Origin: Escherichia coli
Lineage (GTDB): Bacteria > Pseudomonadota > Gammaproteobacteria > Enterobacterales > Enterobacteriaceae
Assembly (NCBI RefSeq): GCF_003334305.1
Contig: NZ_QOWS01000018.1
Reading direction: 5' to 3' (one strand)
DNA: 64,000 nucleotides
Shown: in pieces, positions 51,035-51,865 of the stretch
How the letters are laid out: each line of letters opens with the position of its first letter
How positions within the stretch are numbered: the first letter of the stretch is position 1
The notes under the pieces: model-generated
What the model was told of the DNA's origin: nothing
Database searches by the model: none
The model's input: only the letters and a program-made list of their open reading frames with translations
Made by a program: the position numbers and the translations under genes

Positions 51035-51865
51035 ATGTTTGTTCCGTTTCTCATTATGTTGCGCGAAGGACTTGAAGCCGCGCTGATTGTCAGTTTGATT
51101 GCCAGCTATCTTAAGCGTACCCAGCGAGGCCGATGGATTGGTGTGATGTGGATTGGCGTGTTGCTTGCCGCTGCGTTGTGCCTGGGCCTGGGTATCTTCA
51201 TTAACGAAACCACCGGCGAATTTCCGCAAAAAGAACAGGAACTGTTTGAAGGTATCGTGGCGGTGATCGCCGTGGTGATCCTTACCTGGATGGTTTTCTG
51301 GATGCGCAAAGTGTCGCGCAACGTCAAAGTGCAACTGGAACAGGCAGTCGATAGCGCATTGCAGCGTGGAAATCATCATGGCTGGGCGCTGGTGATGATG
51401 GTCTTTTTTGCCGTTGCAAGGGAAGGGCTGGAGTCGGTCTTTTTCCTGCTGGCGGCATTTCAACAAGATGTCGGGATCTGGCCGCCGCTGGGTGCAATGC
51501 TCGGTCTTGCTACTGCCGTGGTGCTCGGCTTCCTGCTCTACTGGGGCGGTATTCGCCTCAATCTTGGTGCATTTTTTAAATGGACCAGCCTGTTTATTCT
51601 CTTCGTCGCCGCAGGGCTGGCGGCTGGTGCCATTCGCGCATTTCATGAAGCCGGATTGTGGAACCACTTTCAGGAAATCGCCTTCGATATGAGCGCGGTC
51701 CTCTCAACTCACTCGCTGTTTGGCACGCTGATGGAAGGGATTTTTGGCTATCAGGAAGCACCGAGCGTCAGCGAAGTCGCCGTCTGGTTTATTTATCTCA
51801 TCCCGGCGCTGGTGGCATTTGCCCTGCCACCACGCGCAGGGGCGACAGCGTCTCGCTCCGCGTAG
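51035..51865 (+). CDS. efeU: Ferrous iron permease EfeU (FTR1 family), apparently intact
   Basis: 276 aa from MFVPFLIMLREGLEA with REGLE motifs; single uninterrupted frame. Confidence 0.85.
   Translation: MFVPFLIMLREGLEAALIVSLIASYLKRTQRGRWIGVMWIGVLLAAALCLGLGIFINETTGEFPQKEQELFEGIVAVIAVVILTWMVFWMRKVSRNVKVQLEQAVDSALQRGNHHGWALVMMVFFAVAREGLESVFFLLAAFQQDVGIWPPLGAMLGLATAVVLGFLLYWGGIRLNLGAFFKWTSLFILFVAAGLAAGAIRAFHEAGLWNHFQEIAFDMSAVLSTHSLFGTLMEGIFGYQEAPSVSEVAVWFIYLIPALVAFALPPRAGATASRSA

Follow-up and report, generated by a model that had tools for sequence, protein, structure and literature searches.

The locus examined here raises the question of whether the ferrous-iron permease gene efeU, annotated as a pseudogene in the K-12 strain MG1655 (b4490, 830 nt, 1081356–1082185), is intact in this Escherichia coli chromosome and, if so, what its state says about the EfeUOB iron-uptake system and about the identity of the chromosome. 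The stretch of DNA that was analysed, referred to below as the window, comprises 64,000 nucleotides of contig NZ_QOWS01000018.1 (assembly GCF_003334305.1). The gene itself presents the following features:

51035–51865, plus strand: efeU, intact, 276 codons and a TAG stop (open reading frame list and sequence).
51062–51076, plus strand: first REGLE motif (REXXE type), EfeU residues 10–14 (translation and hydropathy scan).
51140–51141, plus strand: GG dinucleotide in codon 36 (GGT, Gly36), located by pairwise alignments with MG1655.
51419–51433, plus strand: second REGLE motif, EfeU residues 129–133 (translation and hydropathy scan).

Starting with the ATG at 51035, efeU reads as a single open frame as far as the TAG whose last base is 51865, and this frame includes both REGLE motifs, as the first-pass annotation of this DNA had described it. 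A GTG at 51026, three codons 5' of the ATG, offers an alternative start and would yield 279 amino acids; the RefSeq start in strain A7, which is 100% identical, is the ATG, and the gene is annotated there as efeU (WP_000497942.1). The chance of 276 random codons staying open is about 9e-7 given the base composition of the window, and we regard the frame as far above chance because its product matches the Pfam FTR1 model end to end (PF03239, residues 1–275 on model positions 1–283 of 284, E=2e-89). With 331.2 bits against the NCBIfam EfeU equivalog NF041756 (cut-off 255 bits) and 351.7 bits against TIGR00145 (cut-off 303.8), the protein belongs to the EfeU/FTR1 (OFeT) family by full-length profile matches above the curated thresholds.

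The membrane topology is consistent with this assignment. In a Kyte–Doolittle 19-residue scan, a crude method for counting transmembrane segments, EfeU exhibits eight hydropathy peaks, two of which overlap (175–193 and 185–203), giving seven segments, and seven transmembrane regions are also stated for the 276-amino-acid EfeU in PMC9174327. The REGLE motifs sit in hydrophobic segments 1 (residues 5–23) and 4 (residues 119–137), placing the REXXE signature within predicted transmembrane helices. A PDB sequence search with EfeU returned no solved relative at E≤0.01. We put the probability at about 0.93 that efeU is here a wild-type intact allele and the first gene of an intact efeU–efeO–efeB operon on a non-K-12 E. 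coli chromosome; as a core gene in its usual condition, efeU is unremarkable here.

The two genes that follow efeU are intact as well:

51923–53050, plus strand: efeO, intact, 375 amino acids, the periplasmic component, which bears an N-terminal signal sequence.
53056–54327, plus strand: efeB, intact, 423 amino acids, Tat-exported DyP-type haem peroxidase/deferrochelatase.

All three genes lie on the same strand, separated by 57 nt (efeU–efeO) and 5 nt (efeO–efeB), and the gene content of the EfeUOB system is complete. EfeO and EfeB are stop-free, full length, above the curated NCBIfam cut-offs and at least 99% identical to the O157:H7 and K-12 proteins. EfeO scores 772 bits against PRK10378 (1–375 of 375) and differs from its K-12 counterpart at two amino acids; EfeB scores 617 bits against TIGR01412 and differs at five. 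EfeB also carries the twin-arginine motif SRRRLLKG and the residues D235, H329 and R347, and matches the solved O157 YcdB/EfeB structures (PDB 2Y4F and 3O72) at E of about 1e-266.

The same operon order between putP and phoH is found in O157:H7 PV15-279 and in the enteroaggregative strain 042. WP_000497942.1 is the EfeU of strain A7, O157:H7 PV15-279, EAEC 042 and strain 41 alike, and the PV15-279 and 042 proteins (YcdN) accordingly show no protein-level difference from EfeU in the window; the EfeO and EfeB accessions are common to A7, 042 and strain 41. By the title of their 2007 paper, Cao et al. are said to have found EfeUOB functional in O157:H7. In strain Nissle 1917, EfeU is likewise the permease of the EfeUOB low-pH ferrous-iron transporter. 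O157:H7 is also named as a serotype with functional EfeUOB in PMC7549933.

Outside E. coli, Ftr1p of Saccharomyces cerevisiae, FtrC of Bordetella and Brucella and cFtr1 of Campylobacter share with EfeU the PF03239 domain and paired REXXE motifs. The partner of Ftr1p in yeast is the multicopper oxidase Fet3p. Other bacterial FTR1 permeases work with P19 or FtrAB, according to PMC9174327, whereas EfeO and EfeB take this place here.

In the mechanism described for the system, EfeU, an inner-membrane ferrous-iron permease with seven helices, belongs to the FTR1 family of oxidase-dependent iron transporters, the REXXE (REGLE) motifs of its helices 1 and 4 being thought to form the iron path. EfeO, with its cupredoxin and M75 domains, and the DyP-type haem peroxidase EfeB are its periplasmic partners, and the three components jointly take up ferrous iron, chiefly at low pH when iron is limiting. 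The first-pass annotation had concluded from the intact gene that EfeUOB is functional. Given an EfeU accession identical to that of O157:H7 and full-length efeO and efeB, this conclusion holds as a strong prediction: we infer with good confidence that this strain expresses EfeUOB and takes up iron through it, because the published work concerns identical or near-identical proteins.

The flanks of the operon contain two candidate signals:

50957–50975, plus strand: putative Fur-box-like site (CGTAATGATAATCGCTATC), with 15/19 matches to GATAATGATAATCATTATC in a consensus scan.
54366–54384, plus strand: terminator-like hairpin, a consensus match only, 39 nt after the efeB stop.

The hairpin possibly marks the end of the efeUOB operon. 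The Fur-box-like site lies 60–78 nt 5' of the efeU ATG and has the same sequence in K-12; over the 90 nt immediately ahead of the ATG, K-12 and the window do not differ, the nearest difference being at 50945, and 15 differences are located 90–413 nt 5' of the ATG. A strict but simple consensus scan of 50370–54850 found no sigma-70 promoter, and a simple pattern search upstream of efeU found no CpxR box. We do not take these missing consensus matches to mean that efeU lacks a promoter, since K-12 has the same proximal sequence. The efeU promoter is reportedly acid-induced and CpxAR-regulated, to go by the title of the study by Cao et al. (2007). Acid induction, together with repression of EfeUOB ferrous-iron uptake by Fur and CpxAR, is what we would predict for this strain.

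The spacer between putP and efeU has several features of its own. It measures 665 nt here (K-12 and 042: 542 nt) and includes a 122-bp GC-rich segment (50496–50617) that is absent from both; with its flanks, this segment is a member of a dispersed intergenic repeat present at a median of three places per genome (range 1–8). In O157:H7 PV15-279, the spacer extends to 2,672 nt and contains an extra 447-amino-acid ORF, which marks it as a variable spot. An Rfam scan of 50300–52000 yielded nothing at gathering score: a REP-like palindromic element at 50795–50831 is a weak naRNA4 match (28 versus a gathering score of 59.5 bits), and a TwoAYGGAY match is at chance level. On the minus strand, a 106-amino-acid antisense ORF (50679–50999) overlaps the region of the efeU promoter and the Fur-box-like site; a shorter form is annotated as “hypothetical protein” WP_001323669.1 in many RefSeq genomes, 042 among them, though not in A7, and the ORF is probably an annotation artefact.

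Downstream of the operon, two genes in the same part of the window carry lesions:

59544–61967, minus strand: pgaA, with TAG at 59973–59975 where K-12 has TGG (W665*).
62555–63913 (approximate): dgcT, with a G8C run at 63031–63038 versus G6CC in K-12.

W665* truncates the 807-amino-acid PGA export porin PgaA in its C-terminal part, and RefSeq flags pgaA with an internal stop in A7. The stop is a private lesion, unless it reflects an error in the assembly. The diguanylate cyclase gene dgcT has gained one base net, which shifts its frame, and is likewise flagged as frameshifted in A7; at such a homopolymer, the change may reflect either true slippage or an error in sequencing. The near-identical strain 41 keeps both genes intact, as K-12 does. 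If both lesions are real, a gut commensal would recently have lost its capacity for PGA biofilms. Gene loss within these 13 kb would then be reciprocal, with efeUOB kept and pgaA and dgcT privately lost here and the converse in K-12; this is a tentative reading that we consider somewhat less probable than its opposite.

The lesions in pgaA and dgcT would at the same time mean that genes near the efeU locus are being broken, and this bears on a further reading, according to which the efeU frame is open but a regulatory change or a missense defect keeps EfeUOB silent or inactive in this strain. The 15 upstream differences from K-12 and the consensus promoter that was not found in 50370–54850 would fit such a change. 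Against this reading, the EfeU accession is also that of O157:H7 and 042, and the EfeO and EfeB accessions are those of 042 and strain 41. The Fur-box-like site and the 90 nt nearest to the ATG are also those of K-12, whose promoter is the one reportedly induced by acid and regulated by CpxAR in the title of Cao et al. Moreover, the 1.1-kb efeU region is 100% identical in 40 of the 40 genomes among the matches listed, which come from many hosts. We therefore consider a silent system unlikely.

That efeU is a wild-type intact allele is seen in its alignment with MG1655, in which the gene occupies the same locus with the same gene order and about 99% nucleotide identity. The only gap in this alignment lies where MG1655 reads GATT-GTGTG and the window reads GATTGGTGTG: MG1655 has a single G in place of the GG at 51140–51141, and this is the K-12 frameshift. 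Lacking one G in codon 36, the K-12 frame comes to a stop after 36 residues (...RWIV*), the remainder of the protein lying in another frame, whereas efeU in the window runs through. The first-pass annotation had proposed alignment with the K-12 and O157 genes as the check: the alignment with MG1655 shows the K-12 frameshift to be absent here, and by its accession the protein is identical to EfeU of O157:H7. The remaining differences from K-12 are eight nucleotides, all of them silent, one being the stop codon (TAG here versus TAA), and K-12 efeU supplied with the missing G encodes a protein identical to EfeU of the window. Because the K-12 protein is intact once this G is restored, the lesion appears to be a single event after which the gene decayed no further, as would be expected of a recent mutation restricted to one lineage. 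The K-12 pseudogene would then be the derived and lineage-restricted state, having arisen by the loss of one G from the GG of codon 36 with no decay downstream.

The statement in the first-pass annotation that K-12 efeU is a frameshifted pseudogene agrees with the b4490 annotation, with the G missing at codon 36 and with the literature. Intact efeU and its K-12 frameshift are already published, by Grosse et al. in 2006 and Cao et al. in 2007, who reportedly described the frameshift in K-12 and, for other E. coli, an operon that is intact and functional. To estimate how the two alleles are distributed, we used 5,426 complete E. coli genomes, of which 5,418 contain the efeU region. The intact 62-mer across the codon-36 site is matched exactly in 3,637 of the 5,426 genomes and the 61-mer with the K-12 deletion in 368. 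Among the matches listed for the latter (60 of 368), all look like laboratory K-12 derivatives, namely MG1655, C600, DH5alpha, J53, DH1, NCM3722 or isolates with MG1655-like coordinates. Judged by these exact matches, intact efeU is evidently the rule in E. coli and K-12 the exception. The same picture is given in earlier papers, which describe the MG1655 EfeU transporter as non-functional owing to the efeU frameshift (PMC2808357) and restate the K-12 frameshift or the functional intact operon elsewhere in E. coli (PMC2808357, PMC4746246, PMC9174327, PMC7549933).

These counts also bear on whether the second G at 51140–51141 might be an assembly or sequencing error that conceals a truly frameshifted efeU. 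The suspicious homopolymer in dgcT (G8 as opposed to G6 in K-12, in a gene that strain 41 keeps intact) makes errors of this type conceivable in the window, but the efeU site is merely a GG dinucleotide with no long run, its 62-mer recurs in 3,637 independent genomes and the frame downstream of it encodes a full-length FTR1 domain. We rejected this explanation as very improbable on account of the shared 62-mer and the complete domain.

The wild-type reading of efeU further implies a chromosome of other than MG1655 type, and here the window as a whole is informative. It is collinear with MG1655 1,041,385–1,094,321 at a block identity of 97.4–99.5%, with 128 mismatches in the 13.4 kb around efeU. 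By contrast with this divergence from K-12, positions 40000–64000 (24 kb) are 100% identical to strain A7, which was isolated from orangutan faeces. The IS1D element that K-12 carries between gfcA and cspH is absent at about 8385–8393, leaving the region 5' of the gfc (group 4 capsule) operon uninterrupted. At the same place, the K-12 alignment blocks overlap by 9 nt, which fits an IS1 target-site duplication. The largest difference is an insertion:

25476–37416: 11.9-kb insert compared with K-12, at the beginning of wrbA; a prophage remnant according to the annotation of A7.

In A7, this insert is annotated with two recombinase-family genes, a tape measure, a baseplate, an HNH endonuclease, a transposase and a DNA N6-adenine methyltransferase; wrbA is a known phage integration site. 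The window therefore shows neither the one-base deletion at efeU codon 36 nor the near-identity and the full set of K-12 insertion sequences (IS1D at gfcA, IS3D at dgcT) that an MG1655-type chromosome would have. As the first-pass annotation had proposed, the chromosome is evidently not K-12, judged by block identity, the missing IS1D, the wrbA insert and the match to A7.

A separate small difference concerns phoH. At about 54767, in the upstream part of the gene, the window differs by one base from K-12 within the N-terminal extension of the 354-amino-acid K-12 phoH, so that the extended form annotated in K-12 cannot be read in the window. The ORF in the window starts at GTG 54811 and encodes 307 amino acids; RefSeq PhoH has 262 amino acids in A7, O157:H7 and strain 41.

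One feature had seemed to point towards K-12, and the first-pass annotation had set the intact efeU against it: a K-12-like IS3 next to dgcT. The position was correctly observed, as an IS3 end at 63924–64000, cut by the edge of the window, lies 10 nt after the dgcT stop, exactly at the place of IS3D in K-12. The element is not a hallmark of K-12, however, because the dgcT–IS3 junction occurs in 2,300 of the 5,426 complete genomes; it is evidently an old and widely inherited insertion, not diagnostic of K-12, and there is no real tension with an intact efeU. That the window is a K-12 derivative whose efeU was reverted or repaired by engineering, as the collinear gene order and the shared IS3 place might suggest, is refuted by the divergence figures and was rejected as having a practically negligible probability, since such a derivative would not carry eight further silent differences within efeU, 128 mismatches in 13.4 kb at 97.4–99.5% block identity, no IS1D, an 11.9-kb wrbA insert, an extra 122-bp segment 5' of efeU and 24 kb identical to A7, and since the IS3 junction is common to 2,300 genomes.

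Two points are of practical use in strain typing: the IS3 beside dgcT is unsuitable as a K-12 marker, and the base at efeU codon 36 offers a quick marker that separates K-12 derivatives from other E. coli. The intact gene also recalls that results on iron uptake obtained in K-12 omit a low-pH ferrous-iron route that is present in natural isolates.
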